DNA from: Alphaproteobacteria bacterium
GTDB taxonomy: Bacteria; Pseudomonadota; Alphaproteobacteria; Caulobacterales; Caulobacteraceae
Length of the DNA stretch: 64,000 nt
NCBI GenBank assembly: GCA_018826515.1
Contig: JAHKAM010000063.1
Location: 26,050-90,049 of the forward strand
Direction of reading: 5' to 3'
The notes under the pieces were generated by a model that was not told the DNA's origin, did not search any database, and saw only the letters and a list, made by a program, of their open reading frames with translations. Positions 15,906 to 35,677 of this stretch are shown piece by piece (the first letter of the stretch is position 1; every line of letters starts with the position of its first letter). Made by a program: the position numbers and the translations under genes.

Positions 15906-15906
15906 G

Positions 15907-16830: not shown

Positions 16831-16832
16831 GA

Positions 16833-20482: not shown

Positions 20483-20657
20483 GGGCGCCGCCCTCCATCA
20501 TCCAGGATCCGGCGACCACCAGGGCGATCCCGCAGGCGCCCCCGGCGACGCTCTGGGCGAACCGTTTGGGCGAGAGGAGGCCGAGCCCGAGCGCCAGGCA
20601 CAGGGCCAGGAAGGCCGAGGTCGCCCCGATCGTCAGAAGTAGGCCGGGCGAGGGCAT
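20475..20657 (-). CDS. Small two-TM membrane protein (60 aa) between virB2 and virB3
   Basis: MPSPGLLLTIGATSAFLALCLALGLGLL...GGACGIALVVAGSWMM. It forms an ATGA overlap with the virB2 stop and overlaps the virB3 start. No homology was recognised. Confidence 0.4.
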   Translation of the reverse strand: MPSPGLLLTIGATSAFLALCLALGLGLLSPKRFAQSVAGGACGIALVVAGSWMMEGGAHG

Positions 20658-20980
20658 CAGGCGCCGCCCGTGATCAGATTGACGATCTCCGCCGCGCCGA
20701 AGACCACGACGATGCCGAGGACGACGATCGCCGCGCGTCGCAGATCGAACAGGCCGAACATCCAGAGGATGCCGACGACGACGACCGCGAGGACGGCCAG
20801 CAAACGGGCGGTATTGCCCGTCAGCATGTCGACCACATTCTGGAGGAGGCCCTCGACATTGGCCGAGGCCATGGCCGGCTGAGCGGACAGGGCGGTGGCG
20901 GCCAGGGCGATGGCCAGGGTCGCCGCCAGAGTGTGGGAAGGGCGGCGCGCGGACGCGATCGGGCTCATCGGGATCACCAT
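20657..20980 (-). CDS. virB2: VirB2/TrbC pilin
   Basis: Long signal peptide ending in AMA, then NVEGLLQNVVDMLTGNTARLLAVLAVVVVG and a second TM helix. This is the pilin architecture. Confidence 0.75.
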   Translation of the reverse strand: MVIPMSPIASARRPSHTLAATLAIALAATALSAQPAMASANVEGLLQNVVDMLTGNTARLLAVLAVVVVGILWMFGLFDLRRAAIVVLGIVVVFGAAEIVNLITGGA

Positions 20981-21600
20981 TCGGCTGAGGTTGAGAAGAC
21001 GACGACGCCGGCCCGCGCCCGGCCGAAGACATCCCAGGGCGGCGCGGGCGGGGACACCGGCTCCGGCGAGGCCGCGACGGCGGTTGTTTCGAGAGGGGGA
21101 GCGACGTCCCGGAGGATCGGCGGCGCCATCAGGCTCAGCCGGACAGCCGCGGCCTCCACCCGCCCGACATAGCCGTTGTCGAAACCCCGCCGGGCGTCGC
21201 CGGTGTTGTAGCGGGACAGGGCGACCCGCAGGGCCGACTGGCGGTCGGACGGCGTACTCCCGGAAACCCGGTATCCGGCCTTCAGCACGGTCGCCGCCGC
21301 CGCCAGATTGCGGCAGGGGTCGAAGGCGTCCTCGACCGACAGGTCCAGCCAGTCGAGATTGCTGCTGTTGATCTGGGCGAGCCCGAGATCGATGTTGGCG
21401 CCGCGCGCCAGAAGCGACCGGGCGGTCCGCGCCGCTTCCCGGGCGTCCCGGGATCGCACGGGCGCCGGGCCGCCGCGATTGACGCCGATCGCCAACGGAT
21501 CGAACCGGCTTTCGACATGGGCGATCGCCGCGAGCGTCTCGGGCGCGACCGACGGGGCGCAAGCCTGCGACAAGGCGAGGACGGCGGCGAGTTCGAGCAT
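20974..21600 (-). CDS. virB1: VirB1 lytic transglycosylase
   Basis: AAIAHVESRFDPLAIGVN carries the SLT catalytic Glu motif. Confidence 0.85.
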   Translation of the reverse strand: MLELAAVLALSQACAPSVAPETLAAIAHVESRFDPLAIGVNRGGPAPVRSRDAREAARTARSLLARGANIDLGLAQINSSNLDWLDLSVEDAFDPCRNLAAAATVLKAGYRVSGSTPSDRQSALRVALSRYNTGDARRGFDNGYVGRVEAAAVRLSLMAPPILRDVAPPLETTAVAASPEPVSPPAPPWDVFGRARAGVVVFSTSAEW

Positions 21601-21676
21601 GGAGCCTCCAGCGAGAAGGCTTCACCTCAGCAGGAGCGGTGGTTCGCGGACCACCCGCGAGATTCCCGTGGGAGAT

Positions 21677-21940
21677 TTACGGTAGGAAGGAGCGCGGTTC
21701 CTCGAGGGCGCGCGTGACCTTGGCGAGTTGCGCCACGGCCTGGATCCGGGTGCGCACGCCGAGGACCTCGCAGGCCGCCGCCAGATGCTCGTCCACCGTG
21801 CGGGGAGAGATCCCGATCTGCTCGGCGATGCCTGGGGAGGAGAGGCCCGTGGCGGCCAGCCGCAGACAGGCGATCTGCCGGTCGGACAGGTCGTCGATCG
21901 ACGACGCGGATGCGCCCGGCGATGTCGGGACGAGGGACAT
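21677..21940 (-). CDS. LuxR/GerE-type HTH protein (DNA-binding domain only, 87 aa)
   Basis: LSDRQIACLRLAATGLSSPGIAEQIGISPRTVDEHL. Confidence 0.75.
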   Translation of the reverse strand: MSLVPTSPGASASSIDDLSDRQIACLRLAATGLSSPGIAEQIGISPRTVDEHLAAACEVLGVRTRIQAVAQLAKVTRALEEPRSFLP

Positions 21941-21990: not shown

Positions 21991-22004
21991 CCGTAGATCT
22001 ACGG
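21991..22004. promoter_or_regulatory. Perfect 14-bp palindrome CCGTAGATCTACGG upstream of the luxR-type gene
   Basis: Read directly. It shares CCGTAG-N2-CTACGG half-sites with the 18-bp palindrome at 6301-6318. Confidence 0.35.
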
Positions 22005-22030: not shown

Positions 22031-22513
22031 TCAGGTCCCTTCGTCCCGGATTGGCCGCATCAAACGGGTGCGTCGCTCCTCGAGCCAGGCATCGGCCTCG
22101 GCGTCACGGTGAACCGACTGGACGGCCAGATCTCTCAGGGTCTTGGTGAAGGTGTTGATCAGGGTCCGGGCGTCGAGGTCGTTGATCGCATCGCCGGCTT
22201 CCTCGTCGAACTCCTGGAGCACCACGACCAGAATGGTCGCAAGTTTGTTGTCGGCGCACCGCAAGGCGAAGTCGGGAGAGCCCAGGGCGAGGGCGGCGAT
22301 AATGCCGTGGGGGTCACTGTCCGTGACTTCGGCGAACCGGTGGATCCGCTCGATGTTGATCCGGCCCGCGCCGGACTCGAAATGCTCGTAGGATCGCAGG
22401 GCCATGTTCATTCCCTGGGCCACATCGATCGTGCGCATACGCCTGTGCGTGCGGATCAGGCGCAGGCTGGTGGAGAGGACGGCGTTCGGCGTCAGGGGGT
22501 GCTGGGAGTCCAT
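22031..22513 (-). CDS. XRE-family HTH regulator
   Basis: LRLIRTHRRMRTIDVAQGMNMALRSYEHFESG is an HTH_3-like segment. Confidence 0.7.
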   Translation of the reverse strand: MDSQHPLTPNAVLSTSLRLIRTHRRMRTIDVAQGMNMALRSYEHFESGAGRINIERIHRFAEVTDSDPHGIIAALALGSPDFALRCADNKLATILVVVLQEFDEEAGDAINDLDARTLINTFTKTLRDLAVQSVHRDAEADAWLEERRTRLMRPIRDEGT

Positions 22514-22753
22514 CTGTCAGTCTATGCCCCCGCCATCCACATCACGCGATCAAAACCTCCGCACCCCTACAGGTTGAAAAATGCCTCAGCCATGCGTCAA
22601 ATGAAACCCTAGAAATATCAACGACGTAAAAGCTGCGGACATGACGCAAGTTTATTGCGGAACCCATCATAGGCGCCACTCACCCGCGCAGGCGACCCTC
22701 TTGCGGGCGGTCGTCCATCTACGGGGCGTTCCTCCCCATCAGGTGCGATCCGA

Positions 22754-23320
22754 TTGAGACAGCGCGATCCCTTCGGCATGGCCATGGCAAGCCTGCGAAC
22801 AGCCCTCGAGGAGGGTCTTGCGCCGGGCCAGCATCTGTCTGTCGCGGACATCGCGGCCTCGCTCAAGCTGAGCACCAGCCCCGTCCGGGAGGCGCTCTCC
22901 CGGCTCTGTGGCGAGGGACTGATCGAGGATCGCAGGGGGCTCGGATACTTCACCCGCGCCGCACCGTTTGAGGACATCATCGGTCTGCTGGATCTCGAGG
23001 CGGCCCATGTGCGCCTCGCGGCGCGAGACGGCTTGGTTCCGGGACCCCACGATGCGGCCAACGCGGTTGTCGATCTCTGGATCCTGGAGGTGGTCGCCCG
23101 CTGCGAGAACCAGCCGCTCGTTGAAAGCCTCGTGAGGGTCAGACGTCGCTTGGGGCCCCTGCGCCGGCTGGGCGAGGCGCTGCTGGATGAGGACACGCCG
23201 CAGTCGGATGATCGGCTCGACGCCTACTATGCCCGGTGGCGGGTCGCGGCGGGTCGGCTCGCCGCCCATGTCCGACGCCTCGACCCAGACCTCTCCGAAT
23301 ACACGCGCAATATTGTTTGA
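22754..23320 (+). CDS. GntR-family regulator with an FCD-like C-terminal domain (the start may be at 22778 or 22784)
   Basis: LSVADIAASLKLSTSPVREALSRLCGEGLIEDRRGLGYF. Confidence 0.75.
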   Translation: MRQRDPFGMAMASLRTALEEGLAPGQHLSVADIAASLKLSTSPVREALSRLCGEGLIEDRRGLGYFTRAAPFEDIIGLLDLEAAHVRLAARDGLVPGPHDAANAVVDLWILEVVARCENQPLVESLVRVRRRLGPLRRLGEALLDEDTPQSDDRLDAYYARWRVAAGRLAAHVRRLDPDLSEYTRNIV

Positions 23321-23352
23321 ATCGATTTGCGATAGGGCGCTGATGGTGCGTC

Positions 23353-23373
23353 GTCGACCTTCTGTCGACCTTC
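23353..23373 (+). repeat. Tandem direct repeat GTCGACCTTC-t-GTCGACCTTC just upstream of the precursor-gene RBS (candidate GntR operator)
   Basis: Read directly. Each unit contains the palindrome GTCGAC (a GT..AC core). The repeat period is 11 bp. Confidence 0.45.
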
Positions 23374-23390
23374 AGAAAGAGGAGACGACC

Positions 23391-23519
23391 ATGACCACCA
23401 AGAGCATCTCGCGCCTCGTTCGCCTGGGCGCCGCTCGCCAGCTCACCCGCGCCAACTCGCGCGGCGAATTCGACGAGCTGAATCCCGTGCTGAAGTACAC
23501 GATTCCGCCGACCGAATGA
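23391..23519 (+). CDS. Lasso peptide precursor A1 (42 aa)
   Basis: MTTKSISRLVRLGAARQLTR|ANSRGEFDELNPVLKYTIPPTE. An AGAGGAGA RBS precedes the gene. Thr sits at -2 of the predicted cleavage site and Glu9 is the ring acceptor. B and C genes follow downstream. Confidence 0.75.
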   Translation: MTTKSISRLVRLGAARQLTRANSRGEFDELNPVLKYTIPPTE

Positions 23520-23525
23520 GCGGAC

Positions 23526-23554
23526 GGGCCGCTTCGGCGGCCCGGACGTCCGGG
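23526..23554 (+). other. Two GC-rich hairpins downstream of precursor A1
   Basis: GGGCCGC-ttcg-GCGGCCC at 23526-23543 and a 14-bp palindrome CCCGGACGTCCGGG at 23541-23554. Confidence 0.5.
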
Positions 23555-23611
23555 CTGGGCCTCGCCCCGGACCCCGCGATCAGAGGCGTTTTTCGTGAAG
23601 GAGATGGATCA

Positions 23612-23737
23612 ATGAAGATCCGGACCGACGCGCCGATCCTGCGACTGGGGGCCGCTCGCCGGCTGACCCGGGCCATCGCGATGGGGCCGTTCACCGAACT
23701 GAATCCGGCCCGGCACTGGACCATGCCGCCCGAATGA
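23612..23737 (+). CDS. Lasso peptide precursor A2 (41 aa)
   Basis: MKIRTDAPILRLGAARRLTR|AIAMGPFTELNPARHWTMPPE. It has a GAAGGAGA RBS. The leader core LRLGAAR(Q/R)LTRA is shared with A1. Confidence 0.75.
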   Translation: MKIRTDAPILRLGAARRLTRAIAMGPFTELNPARHWTMPPE

Positions 23738-23744
23738 TCCCGAA

Positions 23745-23767
23745 GGGGTCGCCCTCCCGGCGACCCC
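23745..23767 (+). other. Stable hairpin between precursor A2 and the B gene (candidate attenuator or mRNA stabiliser)
   Basis: Perfect 9-bp stem GGGGTCGCC / GGCGACCCC with a 5-nt loop. There is no clear U-tract. Confidence 0.5.
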
Positions 23768-23816
23768 CGACGGCCCCCGCTTTGGGTGGGCCCTTGTCGA
23801 CCTGTGGAGTCGCCTT

Positions 23817-24527
23817 ATGCCGCCTCGCGTCCCTTTCGACCGACGGGCCCCCGCCATGGGGGTCTCCGCGTCTGGGCATCGTCTCGATGGTGGGGAGCGA
23901 CAGGGCGCTTCCCTGGCCGAGGGGCTTTACGCCGTGCAGATCGGAGGCGACCTCGTCCTCCTCGACCTCAACGCAGACGACTATCTCTGCCTCCCGGAGT
24001 GCGGGGACATCGCTGTCGCCGGCCGCAGTGTCGCCGGTCCGATGGACGCGCTTCTGCGCCTTGCAGCGGAAGAGCTCCTGCATCCCAACCAGGTCGAGGA
24101 CGAACGACCGGATGCGCCGACGCTCCCGTCCACCCGCCTTCCGGCGCCGCCGCGGATCAGGCCCGGCCTTCGCGACATCCTGGTCTTTGCCCGCATATGG
24201 GCCGAATGCGCAGGGCGCCGGTCGACACTGCTTGAGCTGAAGCGACGCCACACCGGCCGCCGCGGGCGCCGGGACGACCCTTCCGCGCTCGCCTCCAGGG
24301 TCGAGGTGTTCCGCCAACTCTTGCCCTTCGCACCAGTGACCGGGGCCTGCCTGTTGCAGGCCGAGATGCTCCTCCGCTTTCTCAATGCGGACGGCCTCGA
24401 CGCCGACTGGGTATTCGGCGTGAGGACGTTCCCCTTCCTCGCCCACTGCTGGATCCAGTGTGGAGATCAATGCGTCAGCGAGGCGCCGGAGACCCTGACC
24501 GTCTATCGCCCGATCATGGTGATCTGA
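23817..24527 (+). CDS. Lasso peptide maturation protein B (fused PqqD-like RRE B1 plus transglutaminase-like cysteine protease B2)
   Basis: LYAVQIGGDLVLLDLNADDYLCL is the RRE-like part. VTGACLLQAEMLLRFL and FGVRTFPFLAHCWIQCGD carry the Cys/His protease motifs. Confidence 0.85.
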   Translation: MPPRVPFDRRAPAMGVSASGHRLDGGERQGASLAEGLYAVQIGGDLVLLDLNADDYLCLPECGDIAVAGRSVAGPMDALLRLAAEELLHPNQVEDERPDAPTLPSTRLPAPPRIRPGLRDILVFARIWAECAGRRSTLLELKRRHTGRRGRRDDPSALASRVEVFRQLLPFAPVTGACLLQAEMLLRFLNADGLDADWVFGVRTFPFLAHCWIQCGDQCVSEAPETLTVYRPIMVI

Positions 24528-24528
24528 C

Positions 24529-26244
24529 ATGGCCGCGGATTCAGCCATCATCCTCGTCGGCGACAATCCGGCCGCGCTCGAAGCGGCCATTGCGCCGATG
24601 CGAAAGCGCCTGAGCCGGCGAGGCTGGTCCCGGAAGGTCCAGGCGCCCTTTCTCGAGGCCTATGCGCCTTCCGCCGGGCGGCTCGACATCACCTGCGGTC
24701 TGGACGGCCATGGGATCCTGATCGGAGACCTCTACGACCGGGACGGAGGTCGGCTGGAAGGACGGGAACGAGGCGTCCTCGGTTGCCGTCCTCTCGACAG
24801 CGCGCGCGCCCGGGATGTGTGCTCGACCTACTGGGGTCGCTATCTCCTCGTCCGCCGGTTCTCGGGCGAGGTCGCCATCCTCCGCGATCCATCCGGCGGG
24901 ATCGATTGCGTGGTCTGGCGCCGGAACGGCGTGACCTTCATTGCGACCGGGGGCGGCGATCTCATAGATCCCTGGCTTCCGGATACGACGTCGATCGACT
25001 GGGGAGAGGTCGCCGCCCTGGTGCGTCGCCCCGGTGAGCACCGGCATCGCCTGCCCCTGACCGGATTGACGCCCGTCGCGGCCGGCGAGCTGCGCAGCAT
25101 CGGGGATGGAACCCACCGTAGCGAACAAATCTGGACCCCGGCCGAAGTCTACAGGCGTCGCGACCCGGCCGCGCCGCCTGACCTCAGGGCATCCGTGGTC
25201 CTGGGCGTCACCGCGCTGGCCGGAACCCGGAAGTGGATCGCGGAGCTCAGCGGCGGGCTCGATTCCGCCATCGTGGCGGCCGCCCTGACCACGGATCAGC
25301 GCGGCCGGGTCGCAGCTTGGGTCAATCACTATGTCGATCACAGGGAAGGCGATGAGCGGGACTACGCGCTGGCGGTGGCTCGGCGTCACGGGGTGACCCT
25401 GACCGAGGTGCGTCGGGTGGGATTGCGTCTCGGAGCCCGGCGGCTCGAGGTGGCCGCGGACGGATTTCGGCCGGCGTCCAATGATATCGACCCCGACTAC
25501 AATGACGACATCGCCGAGCGCATCGAGACACTCGATGCCTGGGGCTCACTGACAGGGCAGGGCGGCGACGCCGTCTTCTTCCAGATGCCGACACTGCTGA
25601 TCGGCCTGGACGAGATCTGGGAGCGCCGGTTCGGGGCGAGAGTCGAGGTCCTGCATCGCCTGTCCCGCTGGTTGCGCCGCCCTCTCTGGCCGACCGCCCT
25701 GGCCAGGGACTGGCGCGAGGAAATCCGTCACCGTTCGTCCTGGACGCACCCGTGGCTCGAGGATCTCCGGGGCGTGCCGCCCGCCAAGGCCATGCAAATC
25801 TCGGCGCTGTCCTTCTGCCAGACCTTCCAGGGGCCGTCGGTGCGCAGCCGCCGCGGGCCCTGCATCAACCCCCTGCTCAGTCAGCCGGTCATGGAGGCTG
25901 GTCTCGCCCGATCTTCCGTCGATCTGACCTGGGGCGGTCGCGACCGCGCGGCGGCACGGGCAGCGTTCGCCGACACGGTGCCGTCGGTCGTCCTCGATCG
26001 TCGGTCCAAGGGCGAACTCGGCGCCTACTATGGTCGAGCCGTGGCCGAGCATCTTCCCTTCCTCAGAGACTACCTCCTCGGCGGCGCGTTGGCGGAGGCC
26101 GGGTTGATCGACCCCTCGCTGGATGCCCGCCTGACCCGTGAACACCTGCTCTGGCGAGGCGGCCATTCGGAACTGCTCAGTCTGGCGCAGACGGAAGCGT
26201 GGGTACGGCGGTGGCGTGATCGGCTGGCGGCTCGAGCGGCCTGA
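24529..26244 (+). CDS. Lasso peptide cyclase C (asparagine synthetase-like)
   Basis: ELSGGLDSAIVAAAL PP-loop. Length is 571 aa. It starts 1 nt after the B stop. Confidence 0.85.
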   Translation: MAADSAIILVGDNPAALEAAIAPMRKRLSRRGWSRKVQAPFLEAYAPSAGRLDITCGLDGHGILIGDLYDRDGGRLEGRERGVLGCRPLDSARARDVCSTYWGRYLLVRRFSGEVAILRDPSGGIDCVVWRRNGVTFIATGGGDLIDPWLPDTTSIDWGEVAALVRRPGEHRHRLPLTGLTPVAAGELRSIGDGTHRSEQIWTPAEVYRRRDPAAPPDLRASVVLGVTALAGTRKWIAELSGGLDSAIVAAALTTDQRGRVAAWVNHYVDHREGDERDYALAVARRHGVTLTEVRRVGLRLGARRLEVAADGFRPASNDIDPDYNDDIAERIETLDAWGSLTGQGGDAVFFQMPTLLIGLDEIWERRFGARVEVLHRLSRWLRRPLWPTALARDWREEIRHRSSWTHPWLEDLRGVPPAKAMQISALSFCQTFQGPSVRSRRGPCINPLLSQPVMEAGLARSSVDLTWGGRDRAAARAAFADTVPSVVLDRRSKGELGAYYGRAVAEHLPFLRDYLLGGALAEAGLIDPSLDARLTREHLLWRGGHSELLSLAQTEAWVRRWRDRLAARAA

Positions 26245-28555
26245 GATACCGGTCGAACCATTGCCGGACCTGTCGGTAATAGAGCCGGATATTGCCGGGG
26301 CTCCGAAGGCCGTGTTCCTCGCCGATCAGGAGCGTCAGGGCGACGGGGCGTCCCAGGCGGTGAAGCGCGCCATAGAGCTGTTCCGATTGGCCGAGCATGA
26401 GGTCGTATTCCCCGGCGACGAGAAGGGTCGGCGTGTGAATCCGATCCGCCTGGTCGAAGGGACTGTTGCGGCGATAGCGGTCGGCCGCGCTCCAGTAGGA
26501 CGTCCGCATGGCGGCCTGGCCGGACTCGAGCCAACGCGCGCTGGCCGCAGCAGCAAGCGGATGTCCGCCCTCCAGCCTGAGCGTTGAGCCGACGTCGCCA
26601 ATGACCGTCGAGAAATTCATCGGTCCGTTCAAGGCGACCACGGCGTCGAAGCGGTCCGACTGGGCGGCGCCCATGACCGCCGACCAGGCGCCGAAGCTCC
26701 AGCCCCACACACCGATCCGTTCCACATCGATCAGCCCTTCGGCGCCCGCAGCATCGACGACCGCAAGGATGCGGCCGGCCAGTCCATCAGCGGGCTCGCG
26801 CGTCGGCGGAAGGTCCGGAATGAGGATGGCGTAGCCGTCCGCCACCAGCAACTGAGGGGCCATGGAAAGGCTCGTGGATTCCCGTCGCATCCACCAGGGC
26901 GGCGCGTCATAGGCGTCCCCCTGATAGGGCACGACGATGACCGGTGGTTTCGAGGACAGGTCGCGCGGCAGATAGAGCCACCCGCCGACGCCGCCCGGAC
27001 CTGAAACCCGGCGAGGCGCGGCCACCTCGATCCGGTCCAGCTCGGGGTTGAGACGCCGGATCACGGTTCGCCCTTGTTCGTCCTGCCGTCGCAGCACGTC
27101 CGGCTCGTCCTCCTGTGTACTTCGATCGAGGCTCACCCCACGGCTCCAGCTGACCGCAGCCCCGGGCGCGGCGACAGCACATGCTGTGTCGAGCGTCGGG
27201 TCGGCATAGACCCGGCAAAGCCTCCCGTCGGATTGGGACAGGGTCGCGAAGCGCCGCTTCATCGGGCCGTTCATGGCCCGCAGGCCAAACGGTCCGCCAG
27301 GGTCGACTGAACTTCCAGCCGCTCCGAGAACGGTCATACCGCCATCGGGATCGAGTCGAACGAGGTCCCTGGCGCGGTTGAAGAGAACACCGGAAGGGTG
27401 TTCGGCCACGAGCCGGGCGTTTGGTCCGAGCCCTGAAATGGGCCGGACTCCGCCATCGGCGCGGAACCAGCCTTCACCGAGTTCAGTGCGGCCTTTGACT
27501 AACGGCGTGTCATCGAGCCAGCCGCCCTCGGCGGTCGGCATGCCCTGGAAGTCGATCGCGGCAACGGGCGTGACGCCGGGCGGGGTTTCATCCCGCACCT
27601 CGCCGGAAGGCGTCACGGTCAGAAGCCGCGTGCGGTCGCCGACGATGGCGACCACCAGGAGCGCGTCCGACCGGGGCGACCAGGCGAGAAGGCTGGTGGA
27701 GATGTCGCCGGTTCCAGGGGGAGACACGAGCCGGCGATCCTCCAGCGAGACGATCTGCAAACCTCGAGCGCGCCTTACCTCCGTCGACGCATCGGCGGCC
27801 GGAGGCGGCAGGAGCGGGCCATCGAGGAGGAGCGCGACATGGCGGCCATCCGGCGAGACTTCGAAGTCCAGGAAGGGGCCGTCGGCGATCGGGGAGGCGC
27901 GCCCGGTCGTGGCCGTGATCCGCCAGAGGCGGCGAGGAGCCAGGGTGTCCTTTGCGTCGGAGCCCACCATGACGGCCGCAGCGGCCCCCTCCATCGCCGC
28001 CGCCCTCAGCGCCAGCAGGCGGGCTTGCTCCGTGCGAGGACCCGCCAGTCGTGCGGGGAGTGAACCGTCAGCTGTCCCCAGCACGATCAGGCTGTCGTTC
28101 CCCACCCATTCGACCGACCGGCCCCAAAGCCCCAGGTCCGGTGCGACCTCCGTCCATATCACCTGTCCCGTGGCCAGCACGACGACACCCAGACGCCAGG
28201 CGTCGTCCTGAAGGCAGAAGACGACCATTCGACTACCGTCGGGCGAGAAGGGGCCCGCCGTGTAGCCGGCGTTCTCCGCCATCGGCAGAAGCGGCCGCGG
28301 CGAGGCGGCTTCGTCGAGGTCCAGACGATACAGTCTGGCATACCGATTGGCGCCCTCTGCCTCCACGTCATGCCGAGGGAGATCGATCCGGCTGAGGCGT
28401 TCCTCGAAGACAGCCACCGCCCCGGACGGATCGATCGCCACGCGGCCGTAGCTCTCCAGACCCAGGACGACCTCAACCGTGAGGGGGTCGGCCCGCACGA
28501 CGGAAGGGCAGGCGAGCGCAAGGGCGCTCGCCATCAGAACCAAACCTCTGCGCAT
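26177..28555 (-). CDS. S9 prolyl-oligopeptidase-family serine peptidase, predicted lasso peptide isopeptidase (AtxE-type)
   Basis: N-terminal beta-propeller-like region. C-terminal GVWGWSFGAWS nucleophile elbow, then AGEYDLM (Asp) and GEEHGL (His). The gene context matches known isopeptidase-type lasso clusters. Confidence 0.8.
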   Translation of the reverse strand: MRRGLVLMASALALACPSVVRADPLTVEVVLGLESYGRVAIDPSGAVAVFEERLSRIDLPRHDVEAEGANRYARLYRLDLDEAASPRPLLPMAENAGYTAGPFSPDGSRMVVFCLQDDAWRLGVVVLATGQVIWTEVAPDLGLWGRSVEWVGNDSLIVLGTADGSLPARLAGPRTEQARLLALRAAAMEGAAAAVMVGSDAKDTLAPRRLWRITATTGRASPIADGPFLDFEVSPDGRHVALLLDGPLLPPPAADASTEVRRARGLQIVSLEDRRLVSPPGTGDISTSLLAWSPRSDALLVVAIVGDRTRLLTVTPSGEVRDETPPGVTPVAAIDFQGMPTAEGGWLDDTPLVKGRTELGEGWFRADGGVRPISGLGPNARLVAEHPSGVLFNRARDLVRLDPDGGMTVLGAAGSSVDPGGPFGLRAMNGPMKRRFATLSQSDGRLCRVYADPTLDTACAVAAPGAAVSWSRGVSLDRSTQEDEPDVLRRQDEQGRTVIRRLNPELDRIEVAAPRRVSGPGGVGGWLYLPRDLSSKPPVIVVPYQGDAYDAPPWWMRRESTSLSMAPQLLVADGYAILIPDLPPTREPADGLAGRILAVVDAAGAEGLIDVERIGVWGWSFGAWSAVMGAAQSDRFDAVVALNGPMNFSTVIGDVGSTLRLEGGHPLAAAASARWLESGQAAMRTSYWSAADRYRRNSPFDQADRIHTPTLLVAGEYDLMLGQSEQLYGALHRLGRPVALTLLIGEEHGLRSPGNIRLYYRQVRQWFDRYLRPLEPPADHATAVPTLPSAPD

Positions 28556-28561
28556 GTATGC

Positions 28562-31516
28562 TCACCAGCGCTTGACGAGCTGGAGGGAGACCTGACGCCC
28601 AAGGACGTTGGTGTTGGCGGCGTCGTAGCCGATGCCCGCCGGAGCGTCGTAGAAGGGCGGTTCCTCATTGAGAAGATTGAGCACATTCAGGGTGAGCGAC
28701 AGGCCCTTGGCCCACCCGGACTCCAGATCCACGCGCGCCTGACCGTCCAGGGTGATCCAGTCATCGATCGCCCGGCCGCTGGCTGCGTCTCGTCCGCCGC
28801 TGACGTGATTGATGGCGCCCCCGATGGTGAGAGGGCCCAGCATCCATTGCGCGCCGACCCGGCCGCGCCAGCGCGCGGGGAAGTTGGGGCTCCCGAGCAG
28901 ATCTTCCGTCGGCGAGGCCGGCGTTATCGTTCGGTCGTTCGTGAGAAGGTGGGTAACGGTCGCGTCGAGGGCCAGGTCGCCGGACCCCAGGGTGAAGCGA
29001 TAGCGCGTCGACAGATCCAGTCCCTGCACCTCCACCGCCGAGGCGTTGACGTACCGGTTGTCGATCACCGCGCCATAGGCCGTCGCGGGGAAGACGCGCG
29101 GGTTGAAGTTGCCGGGGTGGTCGAGGAGCGACTGCACATAGGCGAGATCGACCGCACTGGTGCGAGGGGCGACGTAGCGGATGAAGGGCGCAAGCGTCGG
29201 ATCGTTCAGGGCGTCGATCAGGTTCTCCGCGACCGGGGTCGCGATCCGGTCCTCGAAGGTGGTGCGGAACCAGCCGCCTTCGATCCGCAACCCTTCAACC
29301 GCGTTCGGCGTCCAGACAAACCCGGCGGTCCAGGATTCGGCGGTCTCCGGGGACAGATCAGGATTGCCGCCGTACTGGACGATGCTGATCACATTGGAGC
29401 CCGCGCGGTCGAGGAAAACCGGACCCAGACGATAGGCGCTGTTCAGCTCGCGCAACGAGGGCGCCCTGAAGGAGGTCCCGAAACTCGTGCGAAAGAGCAG
29501 GTCCGAGGTCGGCTTGTAGAGCAGTCCGACTTTCGGGTTGGTCGTCTGACCGACGCCTTCGTGGTCCTCGATCCGCCCGGCGAGCGACACCTCCAGCCGC
29601 TCGAGGCCGGGGCGGGCGTTGTCCGGCCCCGCGATCGGAATACGAAGCTCGGCGAAGGCGGCGGTGACATCACGCTCGAACCGGGTCGGGGCCGCGATAC
29701 GGGGCGTCGCGCCGGAGATGAAATTTTCACCGGAGGTCTCGAACCGCTCGTGCCGGACATCGAGGCCGACGGCCATGCGAAGGTCGCCGCCGGGCAGGTT
29801 CAGCAGGACGCCGTCCGCCTTCAGGTTCAGCGAGCCCACCGTGCTGATGTTCTCCGACCGAATGTAGCCGGACCCGATGAAGGCCAGCAGCGCCGCGCTG
29901 TGAGAGGCGGGATCGCCGTAGGGGTTGAAGAAGCCGTCGACCGAGGTGCGGAAAGCGGTCGACGGACTGTCGGGCGTCGCGCCGATGGCTTCGTCGAGCC
30001 GGGACGTCTGGACGCGGTTCGTCGCCATCAGCCCCGTCGTCTCACGCCCGCCGCTGATGTAGGCGGCGGTGTTCCAGCCCAGCAGGGTCCCGCTGATTCC
30101 CAGGGCCCCGCCCACGCTCCGTGAGAACCCCTCGTCCCGACCAGGCCCGAGGTCGTTGATGAAGGAGTAGGCGATTTCCTGGAACGGTTCACCGGCGACA
30201 GGGGTGAAGTAAGGGTTGTCGGGAGTGACGAACAGGATGCCGATATCAGCCATCGTGTCCTGATCGTACCGCCGGTCCGTGTAGCGGATGTCGCCGTCCA
30301 GACTGAAACCACCCGGGAGATCCTGACGTCCCGCCAGAAAGACGCTGTGCCGCCTCTGATGCGGGAGGCTCCACTGTCCTTCCATCTGATTGGTCAGATT
30401 GACCGCCCTTGGCCGGAAGTCACCCGGCGTGAGGTTCAGCCCGTTCTGCCCGGGGCGAATGGCATGGGTCGGTTCATATGAACCGCTGACAGGGTCGAAC
30501 GCCATCAGATTGCCGGGCGCGCTGTAGAAGAAGCGGCGGTCGGACCCGCCAAGCGCCCGAAGGTCGGCATCGGCCGTCGCCCGGCGATCCGCCGCCCGGA
30601 GTTCTCCCCGGTCGTGAAATTCATAGGCGGCGACGATTCCGCCGCTCGACCAGTCGAAGCCGCCGCTGTGCGACAGCAGGACTTCCTCGGCGCCGCCGTC
30701 GCTCGTCCCTCCGACGCGGAGGCGGGTTTCGGCCCCTTCGAAACGAGACTTCAGAATGACATTGACGACCCCGCCCACCGCGTCCGCGCCGTACAGGGCC
30801 GAGGCGCCGTCGAGAAGCACGTCCGTTCGTGCAACAGCGCTGGTGGGAATGTTGGAGATGTCTGAGAAATCGCCGGCGCTGCCCGTGCCCGCGATCCGAC
30901 GACCATTGACCAGGACTAGGGTGGCGTCCGCGCCGAGACCCCTCAGGTTCACCCCGGTCGCATAGGCGAGGTTGCGGCTCGTGCGGTCGGCCCCAGTCCC
31001 GGCCGACCCCTCATAGGCCGCGCCTGTGAAATTCTGGGGGAGGGCGGCGAGCGTCTCGGCGACCGTGCCCCGTCCCTGCCGATCGATGTCAGCCTGGGTG
31101 ACGACGGTGACGGGGGAGGGGCTGTCGGCGCCGCGCAGATAGGTCCCGGTCACCACGACTTCCTCCAGCTCCGTGGCCGTATCCGGCTCGAGCTCGGCCC
31201 GCGCGGAAGGGTCGAACAGAACGAAGACAGTAGGCCGGCTTTGGCGGTACGAGAGACCGGTGTCGCGCAGGATGATCTGAAGGGCGGCTTCCGGTGCGTG
31301 ATCGCCGCTCAGGCCGGTCGACTGGCGGCCGGCGACCAGAGCGCTGGGATAGAGGATCTGGAGACCGCTCTGCCGGCCGAAGGCGGGCAGGGTGCGCTCC
31401 AGCGGTCCCGCAGCGATGTCAAAGCGGCGGACGCTGTCCGACGACTGCGCGATCACTGGCGTCGCGACTGCCATCATCAGCGCGGCGAACGCGGTTGAAG
31501 TGTATCCGTGGCCCAT
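28562..31516 (-). CDS. TonB-dependent transducer (FecA-like) with an N-terminal STN signalling domain
   Basis: RRFDIAAGPLERTLPAFGRQSGLQILY is the STN domain. EEVVVTGTY marks the plug. The C-terminus ends in LQLVKRW. Length is 984 aa. Confidence 0.9.
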   Translation of the reverse strand: MGHGYTSTAFAALMMAVATPVIAQSSDSVRRFDIAAGPLERTLPAFGRQSGLQILYPSALVAGRQSTGLSGDHAPEAALQIILRDTGLSYRQSRPTVFVLFDPSARAELEPDTATELEEVVVTGTYLRGADSPSPVTVVTQADIDRQGRGTVAETLAALPQNFTGAAYEGSAGTGADRTSRNLAYATGVNLRGLGADATLVLVNGRRIAGTGSAGDFSDISNIPTSAVARTDVLLDGASALYGADAVGGVVNVILKSRFEGAETRLRVGGTSDGGAEEVLLSHSGGFDWSSGGIVAAYEFHDRGELRAADRRATADADLRALGGSDRRFFYSAPGNLMAFDPVSGSYEPTHAIRPGQNGLNLTPGDFRPRAVNLTNQMEGQWSLPHQRRHSVFLAGRQDLPGGFSLDGDIRYTDRRYDQDTMADIGILFVTPDNPYFTPVAGEPFQEIAYSFINDLGPGRDEGFSRSVGGALGISGTLLGWNTAAYISGGRETTGLMATNRVQTSRLDEAIGATPDSPSTAFRTSVDGFFNPYGDPASHSAALLAFIGSGYIRSENISTVGSLNLKADGVLLNLPGGDLRMAVGLDVRHERFETSGENFISGATPRIAAPTRFERDVTAAFAELRIPIAGPDNARPGLERLEVSLAGRIEDHEGVGQTTNPKVGLLYKPTSDLLFRTSFGTSFRAPSLRELNSAYRLGPVFLDRAGSNVISIVQYGGNPDLSPETAESWTAGFVWTPNAVEGLRIEGGWFRTTFEDRIATPVAENLIDALNDPTLAPFIRYVAPRTSAVDLAYVQSLLDHPGNFNPRVFPATAYGAVIDNRYVNASAVEVQGLDLSTRYRFTLGSGDLALDATVTHLLTNDRTITPASPTEDLLGSPNFPARWRGRVGAQWMLGPLTIGGAINHVSGGRDAASGRAIDDWITLDGQARVDLESGWAKGLSLTLNVLNLLNEEPPFYDAPAGIGYDAANTNVLGRQVSLQLVKRW

Positions 31517-31608
31517 GGCTTTCCCCCGTTTTTCTACCCGCGAATGTGCGGGGCGGGGAGGAGACGTTGGGTCGCGGACCTTGGGCTAAGTCCGGGAGCG
31601 AATTATTT

Positions 31609-32583
31609 TCAGGCGCCGCGGCTGAGCACGATGCGACCGTCTTCCGTCCGGGCGGCCTGAAGCGGATAGAGGTCCGTCAGGGCGGCGACGAAGCCGTCGA
31701 TGTCGCCCGCGTTAAAGACCCCGCTGACCCGGATTTCGGACACGCGGGCGTCCTGCAACTCGATCGGCTCGCGGCTGTAGCGATTGACCTCCGCCACCGC
31801 CACCGAGACCGGGGTGTTCTCGAACGTCAACCGTCCGACCGTCCAGCTCGTCGCCGCCGCGACGTCTGTGGTCATCACCTGGGGCTGGCGGGCGGAGGTG
31901 ACGACCTGCTGCCCCGGCGTCAGGGACCACTGAGCCGGTCGGTCCATGTCGTGCCGGACGGCGACCCGCCCGTCGACCAGAATGACGCGAGCGCCCGCGC
32001 CGGAGCGCCGGACGTCGAAGCGGGTGCCCAGAGCCGTCACCCTTGTGTCCCCGGCCGCCACCACGAAGGGGCGCGCCGCGTCGCCCTCGACATCGAACAT
32101 GGCCTGGCCCGAGGTGAGGGTGACGGCGCGGCGGTCACGCGTGTAGCGCACCGCCACCCGGGTGTTGGTGTCCAGAGTGATGCGCGAGCCGTCGTGCAGC
32201 TGCACCGTCCTCTGCTCCCCGACGGCCGTGGCATAAGTAGCGGGCCGCTGCTGGAGCCAGGCGAGACTGAAAGCGCACACGGCCACGGCCGCCGCACCGG
32301 CGACGCCCAGAGAGACCAGACGGCCCGAGGGCCTGCGCTTCTCTCGGGCTTCAGTCCCGCGCCTGGCCTCGGCCGTCAGGGCCGCCAGCTCGGGGTTGCC
32401 GGCCAGCGCGCCCGCGGCGTCCCACATGGCCTCGATCTTCTGGAAGGCGTGCGCATTGGCGGGATCGCGGCGCCAGGCGCTGAAACCGCGCACGTCCGCC
32501 GTCGTGACCTTGCGCTGATTGAGCCGAGTGAACCACTCGACGGCTTCCTTGCGCCTGATGTCGGCCTCCGCCTCGATCGTCAT
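31609..32583 (-). CDS. FecR-family anti-sigma factor / sensor
   Basis: EAVEWFTRLN...FSAWRRDPANAHAF N-terminus, one TM helix, and a FecR domain (VQLHDGSRITLDTNTRV). Confidence 0.85.
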   Translation of the reverse strand: MTIEAEADIRRKEAVEWFTRLNQRKVTTADVRGFSAWRRDPANAHAFQKIEAMWDAAGALAGNPELAALTAEARRGTEAREKRRPSGRLVSLGVAGAAAVAVCAFSLAWLQQRPATYATAVGEQRTVQLHDGSRITLDTNTRVAVRYTRDRRAVTLTSGQAMFDVEGDAARPFVVAAGDTRVTALGTRFDVRRSGAGARVILVDGRVAVRHDMDRPAQWSLTPGQQVVTSARQPQVMTTDVAAATSWTVGRLTFENTPVSVAVAEVNRYSREPIELQDARVSEIRVSGVFNAGDIDGFVAALTDLYPLQAARTEDGRIVLSRGA

Positions 32584-32592
32584 CCGTCTTGC

Positions 32593-33135
32593 CTAAAGGT
32601 CCAGCCGAGACGCGCAATACTCGAGCGCCCGGGCCATCCGCCACTTCACGGTCTGCTCGCTGATCTCGAGGGTCCGGGCAATCTCCGGGTAAGTCATACC
32701 GCCAAAGCGACTGAGAACGAAGACTTTGCGGTAAAGGGGCGGCATATCGCGGATCGTCTCCGTCAGCAGCGCGGCGTCGAACTGCACGGCCGCTTCGCTG
32801 ACAGGCGGGGGCGCCGCCACCTGATGACGTCGCTGCAGGGCGTCCTGCCTGTGCGAGTCAGTCAGGAGGTTCAAGGCGATCCGGAGCAAGAAGGCCTTGG
32901 GGTGCCGGATGTCGGCCAGGGCGTAGGGCGCGGCGCGGATATAGGTCTCCTGAACCACGTCCGCGGCCGCATCCGCGCCGATCCGACCGCGCAGACGCCG
33001 TCCCAGCCAGGGTGCGTACTGACGGTAAAGACGGCCAAGACCATCCTGTCCCTCCGCGCCCAGCTGCTTCGTGTCTGTCACCACGCCTCTCCGACCTCTT
33101 CCAAAAAGGTCCGGAATCCGGGCGAGACGGCGCAC
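32593..33135 (-). CDS. ECF sigma factor (FecI-like)
   Basis: AADVVQETYIRAA is region 2. YRKVFVLSRFGGMTYPEIARTLEISEQTVKWRM is region 4. Confidence 0.85.
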   Translation of the reverse strand: MRRLARIPDLFGRGRRGVVTDTKQLGAEGQDGLGRLYRQYAPWLGRRLRGRIGADAAADVVQETYIRAAPYALADIRHPKAFLLRIALNLLTDSHRQDALQRRHQVAAPPPVSEAAVQFDAALLTETIRDMPPLYRKVFVLSRFGGMTYPEIARTLEISEQTVKWRMARALEYCASRLDL

Positions 33136-33367: not shown

Positions 33368-33667
33368 TTGCCTGAAACGGCGATTCCCGCCCAACGTGAA
33401 TCCTGTTCACTCAGGGAGTTGTCCATGGATTGCGCGTCACCGGCCCAGCCTCGCGAGATACCGGCGTTGAGCCCCCGCGAGTCGGAGTGCCTGCTGTGGG
33501 TCAGCCGGGGCAAGAGCTCGGCCGATATCGGCCAGATCGTCGGCCTCTCGCCGCGCACGGTGGACAGCTATCTGGAGAAGACCTGCGCCAAGCTGCGCGT
33601 CCGCACGCGTATCGAAGCGGTCGCGGTCGCCGTTCGCGATGGCATCATCGATCCCGACGCGGAGTGA
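33368..33667 (+). CDS. LuxR/GerE-type HTH protein (DNA-binding domain only; the start is possibly at 33425)
   Basis: LSPRESECLLWVSRGKSSADIGQIVGLSPRTVDSYL. Confidence 0.7.
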   Translation: MPETAIPAQRESCSLRELSMDCASPAQPREIPALSPRESECLLWVSRGKSSADIGQIVGLSPRTVDSYLEKTCAKLRVRTRIEAVAVAVRDGIIDPDAE

Positions 33668-34399: not shown

Positions 34400-35677
34400 G
34401 TGATTGATCTTGATGGCGATGGGGCGGATGGCCTGGAGGAGCCGCGTCTCGATGAAACGAGAAGCGGTGACCCTGGCGATGAGGCCGAACGCAACTTCCG
34501 ATATCAGCACCAGTACGGGGTGGTTCTGCTCGTCGCCGTTCGGCGCGGCGCCTTCCCCTACGTGAACCTCTACTGCGAACACCACGAGGATCTGCTGTGC
34601 GAGCGTCCGGACGGCCTGTTCGACGGTTGGCAGATCAAGACGTCCACGCCGGAGAACGGACCCTGGACGCTTCGCGATGCCGCCCTGGTCAAGTCGATCG
34701 GCCGTTTCGTCGACCTGTGCGCGACCTACCCCTCGCAGATTGGCGTCCTGTACTTCGTGTCCAACTCCGACTTCGATGTGGTGGGCGACGACATCCAGGA
34801 TCAGAAGCGCCGCGGCCGATGCCCTCCGCTGATGCTGGCGCACCTGAGGGCCTGCCCCTCGCTTGCGGACATCGCGCCACCCTTCCTGGCGGCCTTCGAC
34901 GAACTGGGGGCCACCCTGGGCGCCGACCGGCAGAGGCTGTTCGACGTCCTGCGACGGGTGGAGCTGGTCAAGGGACCGTCCAGGGCGGAGTTTGACGCGA
35001 CCCTGGCCCACGAGCATCTCGGGGGGCTGGGCGACTGCAACGCCCTCACACCCGCCCAGCTGTCCGAGCTTCGTGACGACCTGGTCGCGCGGGTCCACCG
35101 CGCCGCCTCCCTGCATGTCACCGCCCCGGGACGCCACACCCGCAGCCTTCTGGCCGAGGACGACGAGGATCCCGTCATCACCGCAAAGCGCATCGTCTGC
35201 GCCGATGTCGTCTTCGCCCCGCCCACGATCGCCCTGAAGGCCTTCGCCTATCAGGGCCAGTCCCGACTGACGCCCGGCGGTCCCCGGCGAGCCGGCGTCC
35301 TTGAACAGAAGCTCGAAGCGGGCGGCTTGGGCGAAGCCGTGAGCTACATGACCGCCAAGGAGATGGCCGCGGAATACGCCCTGCTGGAGGATCAGGCGCG
35401 CAACCCTGTCGCCGCCGAGAAACAGCTCAAGCAGATCGAGGAGGCCGTCCACGGCGAATGCGTGGAGGCCTATTACGCCGCCGCGAACGACTCCGAGACC
35501 TTCGGCCCGGCCATGCTGACGGATGTGACCGGCAGGCTGCGCAGGCTAGAGGGCGACCGCAGGTCGCTCACGGGTGGACAGCCCTACGAAGTGCTGGTCG
35601 GCGTCGCCGCCATGCTGACGCGGGAGTGCCGTGTCTGGTGGAGCAAGCGCTTTGACGTCCAGGAGCCGCGCCCATGA
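34400..35677 (+). CDS. Cap4/DUF4297-like dsDNA nuclease-domain protein (predicted effector of the three-gene system)
   Basis: AERNFRYQHQYGVVLL...LYCEHHEDLLCERPDGLFDGWQIKT is the N-terminal restriction-endonuclease-fold pattern of DUF4297/Cap4 nucleases. About 270 residues of helical C-terminal region of unknown function follow. The start is GTG. Confidence 0.7.
   Translation: MIDLDGDGADGLEEPRLDETRSGDPGDEAERNFRYQHQYGVVLLVAVRRGAFPYVNLYCEHHEDLLCERPDGLFDGWQIKTSTPENGPWTLRDAALVKSIGRFVDLCATYPSQIGVLYFVSNSDFDVVGDDIQDQKRRGRCPPLMLAHLRACPSLADIAPPFLAAFDELGATLGADRQRLFDVLRRVELVKGPSRAEFDATLAHEHLGGLGDCNALTPAQLSELRDDLVARVHRAASLHVTAPGRHTRSLLAEDDEDPVITAKRIVCADVVFAPPTIALKAFAYQGQSRLTPGGPRRAGVLEQKLEAGGLGEAVSYMTAKEMAAEYALLEDQARNPVAAEKQLKQIEEAVHGECVEAYYAAANDSETFGPAMLTDVTGRLRRLEGDRRSLTGGQPYEVLVGVAAMLTRECRVWWSKRFDVQEPRP

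Follow-up and report, generated by a model that had tools for sequence, protein, structure and literature searches.

Lasso peptide clusters that encode an isopeptidase have a nearly constant layout, in which a GntR regulator and the precursor genes are accompanied by the isopeptidase, a TonB-dependent transporter and a sigma/anti-sigma pair (PMC9266682). The astexin clusters, with AtxE1/AtxE2, and the sphingopyxin I cluster, with SpI-IsoP, supply the proven lasso isopeptidases; both have this layout and carry no ATP-binding cassette (ABC) exporter (PMC9266682). Why cells make a very stable knotted peptide together with a receptor and an enzyme to retrieve and undo it is unexplained (PMC9266682, PMC11006600). 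The lasso locus described here lies at 22754-33135 of a 64,000-nt stretch, referred to as the window, of contig JAHKAM010000063.1 (positions 26,050 to 90,049) from a member of the Caulobacteraceae. It is probably a functional class II lasso system of the isopeptidase type that forms part of the backbone of an integrative conjugative element of Brevundimonas. The locus itself is real, intact and very probably functional, of the known isopeptidase-containing architecture and with new caulonodin-like peptides. What is surprising is that a backbone module of a conjugative element family should be at once universal and variable in its cassette, and that its peptidase belongs to a lineage outside AtxE2.

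All nine genes named for the locus in the initial annotation were recovered as intact open reading frames (ORFs) at or near their annotated positions, with family support from Pfam or NCBIfam. GntR, the precursors A1 and A2, the protease B and the cyclase C follow one another on the plus strand, and an S9 peptidase, an STN-type TonB-dependent receptor, FecR and an extracytoplasmic function (ECF) sigma factor lie on the minus strand (Table 1). This is the published layout of isopeptidase clusters, again lacking an ABC exporter, and the precedent that had been named for the architecture is thereby borne out (PMC9266682). The locus had also been called complete; the class II lasso set is indeed all there, and an XRE-like regulator of 160 residues (p160), divergent from GntR, had been overlooked. 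Among close loci 31 of 33 have a homolog of p160 next to GntR, as do 14 of 21 distant lasso loci (Caulobacter, Phenylobacterium, Sphingomonas); on this synteny p160 is counted as a conserved part of the locus. The whole is bracketed by LuxR_L and LuxR_R, two small LuxR genes of the GerE-only type. The same gene array recurs in more than 70 independent loci, an occurrence far beyond chance. It is extremely unlikely that the locus is an inactive relic: the precursors are hypothetical proteins in public annotation, but all ORFs are intact, the catalytic residues are invariant, the precursors are conserved along with their Shine-Dalgarno sites, and the array has been kept in those loci across wide divergence.

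The locus had been described as cargo of the element, a description that two sets of loci do not support. The first was anchored on the S9 peptidase and comprised 33 species-representative genome loci (S9 at >=44% identity, enough sequence); C and the receptor-FecR-sigma set were present in 33/33, and VirB1 or VirB4 was found within 10 kb, in the same order, in 30/33. The second was anchored on VirB1 and is unbiased toward lasso genes, being drawn from metagenome contigs with at least 5 kb upstream of virB1 (41 loci). Upstream of virB1, p160, LuxR_L, GntR, B and C were present in every locus with VirB1 at >=59% identity (36/36), and the five loci that carry no lasso locus have VirB1 at <=57% identity. 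Contig L011 (1-1240; loci and contigs compared are cited by L numbers) carries the Lamassu/metal block at 99.7% identity from window position 33569 on, with the joint inside the LuxR_R gene, fused to another relaxase-LPD7 backbone (relaxase at 88% nucleotide identity) that has neither type IV secretion system (T4SS) nor lasso genes. This junction places the lasso locus on the backbone side, and the variable cargo starts beyond it; LuxR_R marks the right edge of the conserved module. The lasso locus is a universal, fixed part of the backbone of a Brevundimonas conjugative element family.

The element carries MobC, a relaxase, VirD4, VirB1-6 and VirB8-11 (Pfam, identical public contigs), a full VirB-type transfer set. 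The exact cyclase protein was read on 22 public contigs, one of them the 3.48-Mb record CP012897.1, and its context did not vary among them. That record holds two diverged element copies, L003 at ~3.03 Mb and L015 at ~1.78 Mb, whose S9 proteins are 68% identical and whose lasso cassettes differ; the second copy has its lasso locus in the same slot and, beyond the right-hand LuxR, CopC/CopD cargo instead of Lamassu/czc. Several strains have two or more element copies per genome. To the right, similarity between contigs ends ~3.1-3.9 kb past the window and is followed, depending on the contig, by pyruvate kinase, by a transposase and cold-shock gene, or by PhoX. The horizontal mobility proposed earlier is upheld by the transfer gene set, the 22 contigs with the exact cyclase and these differing right-hand flanks. 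Neither integrase nor tRNA genes were found in the flanks that can be reached from the window proteins, the left end lying outside that reach. A megablast search of a plasmid collection with 12 kb of the locus gave no match, so there is no close plasmid copy in it.

Divergence within the element family was followed as identity to the window proteins, which served as the single reference, in 29 non-redundant element loci. Identity of S9 correlated closely with that of B (r 0.93), C (0.98) and the receptor (0.99), and its correlations with VirB4, p160, GntR, FecR and sigma ranged from r -0.05 to 0.06; p160 in turn correlated with GntR, FecR and sigma at r 0.81 to 0.91. In this genome set B, C, S9 and the receptor diverge as a unit, and p160, GntR, FecR and sigma follow the backbone. 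Locus L049 illustrates the break: p160 (96%), the right-hand LuxR (93%) and VirB4 (86%) are close to the window, but S9 (49%), C (57%) and the receptor (69%) are not, and the precursors are quite different. The metagenome loci L112 and L113/L115 are likewise alike in p160 (96%) but have S9 at 90% versus 49%. The B-C-S9 correlations recurred in a wider metagenome set (r 0.97-0.99), where overall phylogenetic signal lifts the correlations of S9 with the backbone to 0.5-0.7. The FecR-receptor and GntR-p160 gaps are strongly conserved and are plausible recombination joints. That the receptor and peptidase change with the peptide-making enzymes, and the adjacent regulators do not, is expected if both recognise the lasso, and this co-divergence is the best evidence here for a reading in which the peptide would be made, imported and cleaved.

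Table 1. Features of the lasso locus and of the element around it (window coordinates; a point marks features given for neither strand)
Feature	Position	Strand	Basis and remarks
MobC and relaxase	6385-7907	+	PF05713, PF03432
virB1-virB11 and virD4 T4SS operon, directly downstream of p160/LuxR_L and co-directional	10227-21600	-	precomputed Pfam, identical public contigs
LuxR_L, 87-aa GerE-only protein between p160 and virB1	21677-21940	-	PF00196 45.8 bits
Perfect palindrome CCGTAGATCTACGG upstream of LuxR_L, candidate operator	21991-22004	.	conserved in relatives
p160, XRE-like helix-turn-helix (HTH) regulator, 160 aa, divergent from GntR	22031-22513	-	weak HTH_31/HTH_3 matches; relatives named XRE family
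Divergent p160/GntR control region	22514-22753	.	~150-bp block conserved in the element family (18 orthologous regions aligned)
GntR regulator, heads biosynthetic operon	22754-23320	+	PF00392, E 2.1e-10; alternative start 22778 in the output of some gene callers
Precursor A1, 42 aa	23391-23519	+	leader MTTKSISRLVRLGAARQLTR, predicted core ANSRGEFDELNPVLKYTIPPTE; called as a gene on many contigs
GC-rich hairpins after A1	23520-23575	+	ViennaRNA fold, about -38 kcal/mol
Precursor A2, 41 aa	23612-23737	+	leader MKIRTDAPILRLGAARRLTR, predicted core AIAMGPFTELNPARHWTMPPE
B leader peptidase (transglutaminase-like Cys protease)	23817-24527	+	PF13471 65.9 bits (cutoff 26); NF033537 66.6 bits (cutoff 33)
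C, asparagine-synthetase-like lasso cyclase	24529-26244	+	PF00733 61.3 bits (cutoff 21)
S9 serine peptidase, putative lasso isopeptidase	26177-28555	-	PF00326 69.4 bits
TonB-dependent outer-membrane receptor	28562-31516	-	STN PF07660 39.8, Plug PF07715 66.9, barrel PF00593 138.1 bits
Conserved leader/promoter region upstream of receptor gene	31517-31608	-	alignment of 25 orthologous regions
FecR-type anti-sigma/signal-transducing protein	31609-32583	-	PF04773 83.0 bits, DUF4880
FecI-like ECF sigma factor	32593-33084	-	Sigma70_r2, r4_2; longest ORF to 33135; 162-163 aa on public contigs
LuxR_R, 80-aa GerE-only protein, divergent from sigma gene	33425-33667	+	PF00196 54.2 bits; in nearly all relatives
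Lamassu (LmuA, LmuC, LmuB), start of variable cargo	34400-38216	+	PADLOC 60.2, 48.0, 243.6 bits

Both precursors are preceded by Shine-Dalgarno sites (aaagaggag before A1, gaaggag before A2), are conserved in relatives, and read LTR|A at the junction of leader and core, with Thr at leader position -2 and Glu at core position 9. The class II precursor pattern (Thr at -2, a small first core residue, Asp or Glu at core 7-9) is thus found in A1, A2 and dozens of relatives, across which core Ala1 and an invariant Glu followed by Leu-Asn are kept. From the alignment of A1, A2 and relatives, an Ala1-Glu9 ring is predicted in both cores, with predicted lasso masses of 2471.2332 Da for A1 and 2347.1241 Da for A2. 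The hairpins 3' of A1 are likely a partial terminator or attenuator that would set the ratio of precursor to enzymes; A2 too has a strong downstream hairpin (about -38 kcal/mol, ViennaRNA). Exact A1 occurs on 60 public contigs and exact A2 on 36, annotated as hypothetical proteins. In some relatives a third precursor is present, whose core begins with Gly1 and has a ring of 8 residues, for example GGGGILHERDSTRRLEQPAA and GKGGEFVELQVTHRYDLPLE (loci L032, L017, L033, L035, L037, L051, L056 and L031); the window has two precursors.

The cores were compared with sphingocin and the 33 lasso peptides tabulated in PMC12427821, 34 known peptides in all, and the best match of either core shared 5-6 residues; neither core string was found in searchable papers. 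Their novelty, proposed earlier, survives both comparisons. The nearest likeness is to caulonodins VI and VII of Caulobacter sp. K31 (AGTGVLLPETNQIKRYDPA, SGIGDVFPEPNMVRRWD; PMC12427821), which, set beside the A2 core AIAMGPFTELNPARHWTMPPE, have in common a first core residue of Ala or Ser, a Glu-closed ring of 9 residues, an x-Asn pair and a basic-aromatic plug. Caulonodins and caulosegnins are class II lassos of the Caulobacterales whose clusters, like the window locus, carry several precursors; they differ in sharing no more than 5 residues with the window cores, which end in a PP(T)E tail, and in that the window locus belongs to a VirB-type conjugative element. Brevunsin of Brevundimonas diminuta (GDMGEEVIEGLVRDSLYPPAG) comes from the same genus and is also class II, with a 9-residue ring on Glu and a YPP tail; it differs in Gly1 and in the rest of its sequence. 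An origin of brevunsin in the present element clade was considered and rejected, the element-borne locus of B. diminuta encoding three other Ala1 precursors. The window cores start with Ala, unlike those of the astexin and sphingopyxin clusters, which start with Gly.

B is identified as the leader peptidase: the catalytic Cys and His are invariant, both family cutoffs are exceeded, and relatives are named lasso peptide biosynthesis B2 protein by NCBI. B had been described as a fusion of a leader-binding RRE domain with the protease, and the first half of that description is the less certain. The protein does have an extra N-terminal domain of ~100 aa with a conserved DLVLLDxxxDxYxCLP motif, and the AlphaFold2 (AF2) model is confident (mean predicted local distance difference test, pLDDT, 89.7). 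This domain had no Pfam match, a profile of B gave no match in the Protein Data Bank (PDB) even at E 10, and the best RRE match of the model by Foldseek was to the lasso RRE TbiB1 at E 0.11 (rank 12), nothing being significant. No separate RRE gene is present in the locus, and by its size and place the domain is plausibly the leader-binding RRE. C adjoins B in every locus examined. The C gene is convergent with that of S9, and the two overlap by 68 nt (26177-26244), which could couple or oppose their expression. Among relatives the overlap is 68 nt in L015 and L034, 59 nt in L062 and 119 nt in L105.

The S9 peptidase has the two-domain, prolyl-oligopeptidase-like fold of AtxE2 and SpI-IsoP with a Ser-Asp/Glu-His triad. 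Its AlphaFold model (pLDDT 87) consists of a beta-propeller and an alpha/beta-hydrolase fold, and Ser620, Asp718 and His748 are invariant in 25 S9 sequences. The N-terminus resembles an export signal (residues 1-19 of low confidence, with a helix at 5-14 in the AF2 model), so that periplasmic action is expected. It differs in aligning with AtxE2 over the catalytic domain only, in lying outside the curated AtxE2 family, and in an N-terminal domain ~90-100 residues longer than in the solved isopeptidases, the catalytic stretch starting at ~596 versus ~506 in AtxE2. The lineage as a whole is long (~790-825 aa). Close homologs (~790 aa) come almost entirely from Brevundimonas and bear only generic names, S9 peptidase or dipeptidyl peptidase; at ~30% full-length identity the lineage reaches Caulobacter, Phenylobacterium and Sphingomonas, again within lasso loci, some of which encode caulosegnin I/II-like cores (GSFVGPPEALNPTGREIQG, GTLSPGLPEDVLPGHYMPG). 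Precursors like those of the C. segnis caulosegnins adjoin this long S9 lineage in L067 and L069. On these sequence comparisons, a lasso-associated long S9 lineage exists beyond the reach of the curated isopeptidase model.

Several results weigh against a functional isopeptidase-type system. On NCBIfam NF033523, the AtxE2 isopeptidase model, S9 scored 49.8 bits against a cutoff of 400, over the C-terminal catalytic domain only, and three Caulobacter and Sphingomonas relatives, caulosegnin-like loci included, scored 47-70 bits. A single-sequence search of the PDB with S9 returned neither AtxE2 nor SpI-IsoP at E < 0.01; a 25-sequence S9 profile placed AtxE2 (5txc) at rank 13 with 48.7 bits, catalytic domain only and behind generic S9 enzymes; and Foldseek of the model listed S9 carboxypeptidases and acylaminoacyl peptidases first, with SpI-IsoP (5jrk) at rank 50. 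To our knowledge, no member of this S9 lineage has been assayed. C fell under every NCBIfam cyclase cutoff (66.6 versus 300 for the macrolactam-cyclase subfamily), B lacks a significant RRE match, and no exporter was found in the locus. As to the co-divergence, B, C, S9 and the receptor are contiguous, so linkage alone adds to their correlation; the correlations rest on one reference and on related loci; and in the wider metagenome set GntR is intermediate, tracking the cassette as well as the backbone.

The AtxE-type label of the initial annotation is accordingly not supported for the peptidase, since by profile and fold S9 is no nearer AtxE2 or SpI-IsoP than generic S9 peptidases are. With S9 outside the AtxE2 family by model, profile and fold, its role as the lasso isopeptidase is an inference from position, synteny and co-divergence, not from family membership. 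S9 might instead be a periplasmic enzyme that attacks ordinary peptide bonds of the imported peptide, trimming it (at the C-terminus, for example) or degrading it, or might act on another substrate. The missed AtxE2 model, the leading structure and profile matches and the longer N-terminal domain would all suit such an enzyme, but its position is identical to that of the proven isopeptidases in the published architecture (PMC9266682), three of four S9 proteins scanned nonetheless have AtxE2 as their highest-scoring NCBIfam family, and S9 divergence is tightly coupled to that of B, C and the receptor, as expected of an enzyme that recognises a folded lasso. An S9 of this other kind is considered unlikely, and a lasso isopeptidase remains the preferred assignment.

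The biochemical steps of the system can be proposed from family knowledge, on which all of them rest. GntR would gate the A1-A2-B-C operon. The N-terminal domain of B would hold the 20-aa leaders, and its Cys-His protease would cut after Thr(-2)-Arg(-1); C would then use ATP to close the ring around the tail by linking the amine of Ala1 to the side chain of Glu9, giving two threaded lassos of 22 and 21 residues. Outside the cell, the peptide would be recognised by the TonB-dependent receptor of the locus itself, whose STN domain would signal through FecR to the ECF sigma factor and raise expression of the receptor and S9. On entering the periplasm the peptide would meet S9, a serine hydrolase exported there, and be opened by it, the isopeptide bond being the likeliest site.

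The STN receptor, FecR and the ECF sigma factor make up a cell-surface signalling set, and all NCBIfam Fec equivalog cutoffs were missed. As in the FecA-FecR-FecI and pyoverdine FpvA-FpvR-FpvI/PvdS systems, an STN receptor, a FecR-type transducer and an ECF sigma factor form one unit; the presumed ligand in the window differs, being a ribosomal lasso peptide from the adjacent operon and not an iron chelate. The conserved region upstream of the receptor gene (Table 1) contains a candidate ECF-dependent promoter plus a stem-loop. Its core, GCGACCCAACGTCTC, is unique in the window, and no second copy of the block was found elsewhere in it; the idea that the ECF sigma factor visibly drives other promoters of the element was dropped for this reason. 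Scans over 20.9-34.4 kb for sigma-70 promoter and terminator consensus sequences gave background level only, and a search of the whole window against Rfam returned zero RNA families. A conserved insert of ~200 bp lies between the right-hand LuxR and the ECF sigma gene in some relatives (L056, about 5000-5300; also L020, L027, L037, L024, L046, L051, L031, L050, L034 and L062). Neither the window nor its nearest relatives have this insert, which matches nothing in Rfam and could represent a small RNA or a miniature mobile element.

What import and cleavage would serve is a separate question. The lassos might bind extracellular cargo, be taken up by the cognate receptor and be linearised by the peptidase to release it, a siderophore-like privatised public good. 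This scavenging hypothesis is already stated in the literature (PMC9266682, PMC11006600). It is a possibility to be taken seriously, if not the expected one: the FecA/FecR/FecI-type set is the classic layout of iron-carrier uptake, and the producer makes its own specific receptor. Pyoverdine types co-diversify with their receptors, and the co-divergence of the cassette inside a conserved sigma/anti-sigma frame parallels the pyoverdine loci. Set against this, the cores have no evident metal-binding motif (no Cys/His clusters, hydroxamate or catechol chemistry), an inner-membrane importer is absent from the locus, and the fixed slot next to virB in every element of the clade, while true cargo varies, is left unexplained.

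Alternatively, carriers of the element might use the lassos against competitors, with import and cleavage as self-protection. Many lasso peptides act against bacteria and use TonB-dependent receptors for entry, and among peptides from isopeptidase clusters astexin-1 has narrow activity (PMC9266682). The other peptides from such clusters are, however, reported inactive (PMC9266682), the dedicated receptor is encoded by the producer, so that element-free cells would be without an entry route, and neither an ABC exporter nor an immunity gene is present in the locus; an antimicrobial role is improbable. Microcin J25 offers a precedent for a plasmid-borne lasso cluster on a mobile replicon whose product enters through a TonB-dependent receptor. 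It differs in being an antibiotic with an ABC exporter and immunity gene that uses the siderophore receptor of its target host, and in having neither the peptidase nor the sigma/anti-sigma pair of the window locus.

The association with conjugation genes extends beyond Brevundimonas. Of the distant lasso loci compared that have this S9 lineage (34), half (17) show further hallmarks of conjugation or of plasmids no more than 10 kb away (DUF3363 relaxase, TraF-like S26 peptidase, DUF2840, ParA, RepA, ArdC, DUF736 or a ParB-like protein), and in the caulosegnin-like loci L067, L069 and L075 they stand on both sides. An association of this cluster type with conjugative elements may be general in the Caulobacterales. 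A literature search for lasso peptides and integrative conjugative elements found no relevant paper.

The slot taken by the lasso locus was compared with that in the closest plasmid T4SS, chosen by VirB4 identity. In the Phenylobacterium zucineum HLK1 plasmid (VirB4 65%) a LuxR gene, an acyl-homoserine lactone (AHL) synthase gene and virB1 follow one another co-directionally; in a Sphingobium baderi plasmid (60%) LuxR-LuxR-AHL synthase genes lie upstream of virB, with other genes intervening before virB1; and the metagenome outgroup L184 has LuxR-LuxI upstream of virB1. Two Caulobacter plasmids (67%) have RepA in that slot and no quorum module. The window thus resembles systems with LuxR-LuxI control of conjugation (TraR/TraI-type; P. 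zucineum, S. baderi) in its related T4SS and in having a regulatory module upstream of virB1, and differs in that the slot holds a lasso system, with neither AHL synthase nor ligand-binding domain. LuxR_L matches the DNA-binding domain of the P. zucineum AHL-type LuxR at 63% identity (54 aa) and has no ligand-binding domain; LuxR_L and LuxR_R are 51% identical to each other. In B. variabilis (L034, 4759-5133) a longer right-hand LuxR aligns to residues 92-248 of the P. zucineum AHL-type LuxR at 35% identity, which hints that the small GerE-only regulators may be truncated quorum-sensing LuxR proteins.

The sequences between these genes were searched for shared motifs. The p160/GntR region contains a palindrome of the GCAAG-N3-CTTGC type and one CCGTAGAT motif at 22717-22724; the motif forms the perfect palindrome CCGTAGATCTACGG at 21991-22004, to which the copies at 22717-22724 and 21675-21682 are related. 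Within the window, matches to CCGTA[AG]AT are confined to three consecutive gaps (GntR/p160, p160/LuxR_L and LuxR_L/virB1); the CCGTAGAT motif is not shared with the related plasmids. p160, LuxR_L and virB1 are co-directional, the gaps between them are short and conserved (59-95 bp and 73-78 bp), and no terminator-like site was found between them. The shared motif and common direction suggest regulatory wiring between the lasso locus and the transfer genes. In some relatives p160 and LuxR_L are separated by insertions, which measure 1.2 kb in both L031 and L050 and consist of an AbiE pair in L105; co-transcription is therefore not obligatory.

These observations raise the possibility of communication between elements, in which a lasso secreted only by cells with the element would be sensed at the surface by the element's receptor, FecR and sigma and cleared by S9, with output to LuxR_L/p160 control of virB, so that transfer would be tuned to the density of cells already carrying the same cassette type. 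In its favour are the presence of the locus in 36/36 clade elements directly upstream of and co-directional with LuxR_L-virB1, the LuxR-LuxI genes upstream of virB1 in the three outgroup T4SS (P. zucineum, S. baderi and L184), the likeness of LuxR_L to the P. zucineum regulator, the CCGTAGAT motif common to the lasso promoter region and the regions upstream of LuxR_L and virB1, and the exchange of signal-maker, receptor and degrader as a cassette with the transduction genes staying in place. Swapping of a maker/receptor/degrader cassette resembles, by analogy, the pherotypes of peptide quorum systems. Opposed to it are the single receptor-promoter block in the window, with no sign of the ECF sigma factor driving T4SS promoters, the insertions in L031, L050 and L105, the occurrence of the same lasso array in Caulobacter beside a different conjugation backbone or none seen, and the two of four close plasmids that carry no quorum module; the evidence is, moreover, wholly positional. 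Such communication is regarded as rather doubtful. A fuller version, in which the lasso is the element's own signal, with A/B/C as maker, receptor as sensor and S9 as quencher forming pherotype cassettes, FecR, sigma, p160 and the truncated LuxR controlling transfer, and the whole having replaced LuxR-LuxI, would be more speculative and is distinctly doubtful. The co-divergence is compatible with scavenging as well as with signalling at the level of the element; the virB-side position and the LuxR-LuxI parallel would be explained by signalling only.

The flanks of the locus are as first annotated, with the T4SS on the left and Lamassu defence and metal-efflux genes on the right. On the left are SRAP, DUF736, ArdC, MobC, the relaxase, VirD4 and VirB11 to VirB1, and on the right Lamassu LmuA/C/B, two czc-type efflux systems, and cation diffusion facilitator (CDF) and P-type ATPase genes. 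LmuA of the Lamassu operon, the first unit of the variable cargo, carries a Cap4-type nuclease domain, and the metal-resistance cargo (38238-63592) comprises MerR, CDF transporters, two czcCBA-type resistance-nodulation-division systems, a P-type ATPase, DUF305, MerC, HupE/UreJ and a CsoR-type repressor. Within the transfer-gene region, at 3586-5393, a candidate defence gene from PADLOC (PDC-S51, 296.9 bits) adjoins an AbiD/Abi_2-like gene. Left of the window start (L097-L100, 4402-9849), and apparently still in the element, is an ImuA-like/ImuB/DnaE2 error-prone polymerase cassette, beside which lie a 972-aa protein with no assignment, a HEPN-nucleotidyltransferase gene and a DUF7380 gene. 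Assemblies filed under Hirundo rustica (barn swallow), Lactiplantibacillus plantarum and 'Pseudanabaena biceps plasmid unnamed6' also contain element sequences (A2/p160 protein clusters; L040), which most likely stem from Brevundimonas contamination or co-culture.

In this element family the lasso system is a swappable specificity cassette inside a conserved signalling frame, and it occupies the slot where related plasmids carry quorum sensing; in Caulobacter, too, it often adjoins conjugation genes. Genome mining with the curated isopeptidase model, which misses this large S9 lineage, gives too low a count of such clusters. The family is also a source of many new lasso scaffolds with a predicted Ala1-Glu9 ring, which vary naturally in sequence. 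The setting in an element makes the question of role concrete, in terms of the effect of the peptide on transfer and excision and of the mutual specificity of cassettes. If the signalling reading is true, it would give the isopeptidase-type lassos, whose role has been open since 2013, a function as a signal with its own turnover.

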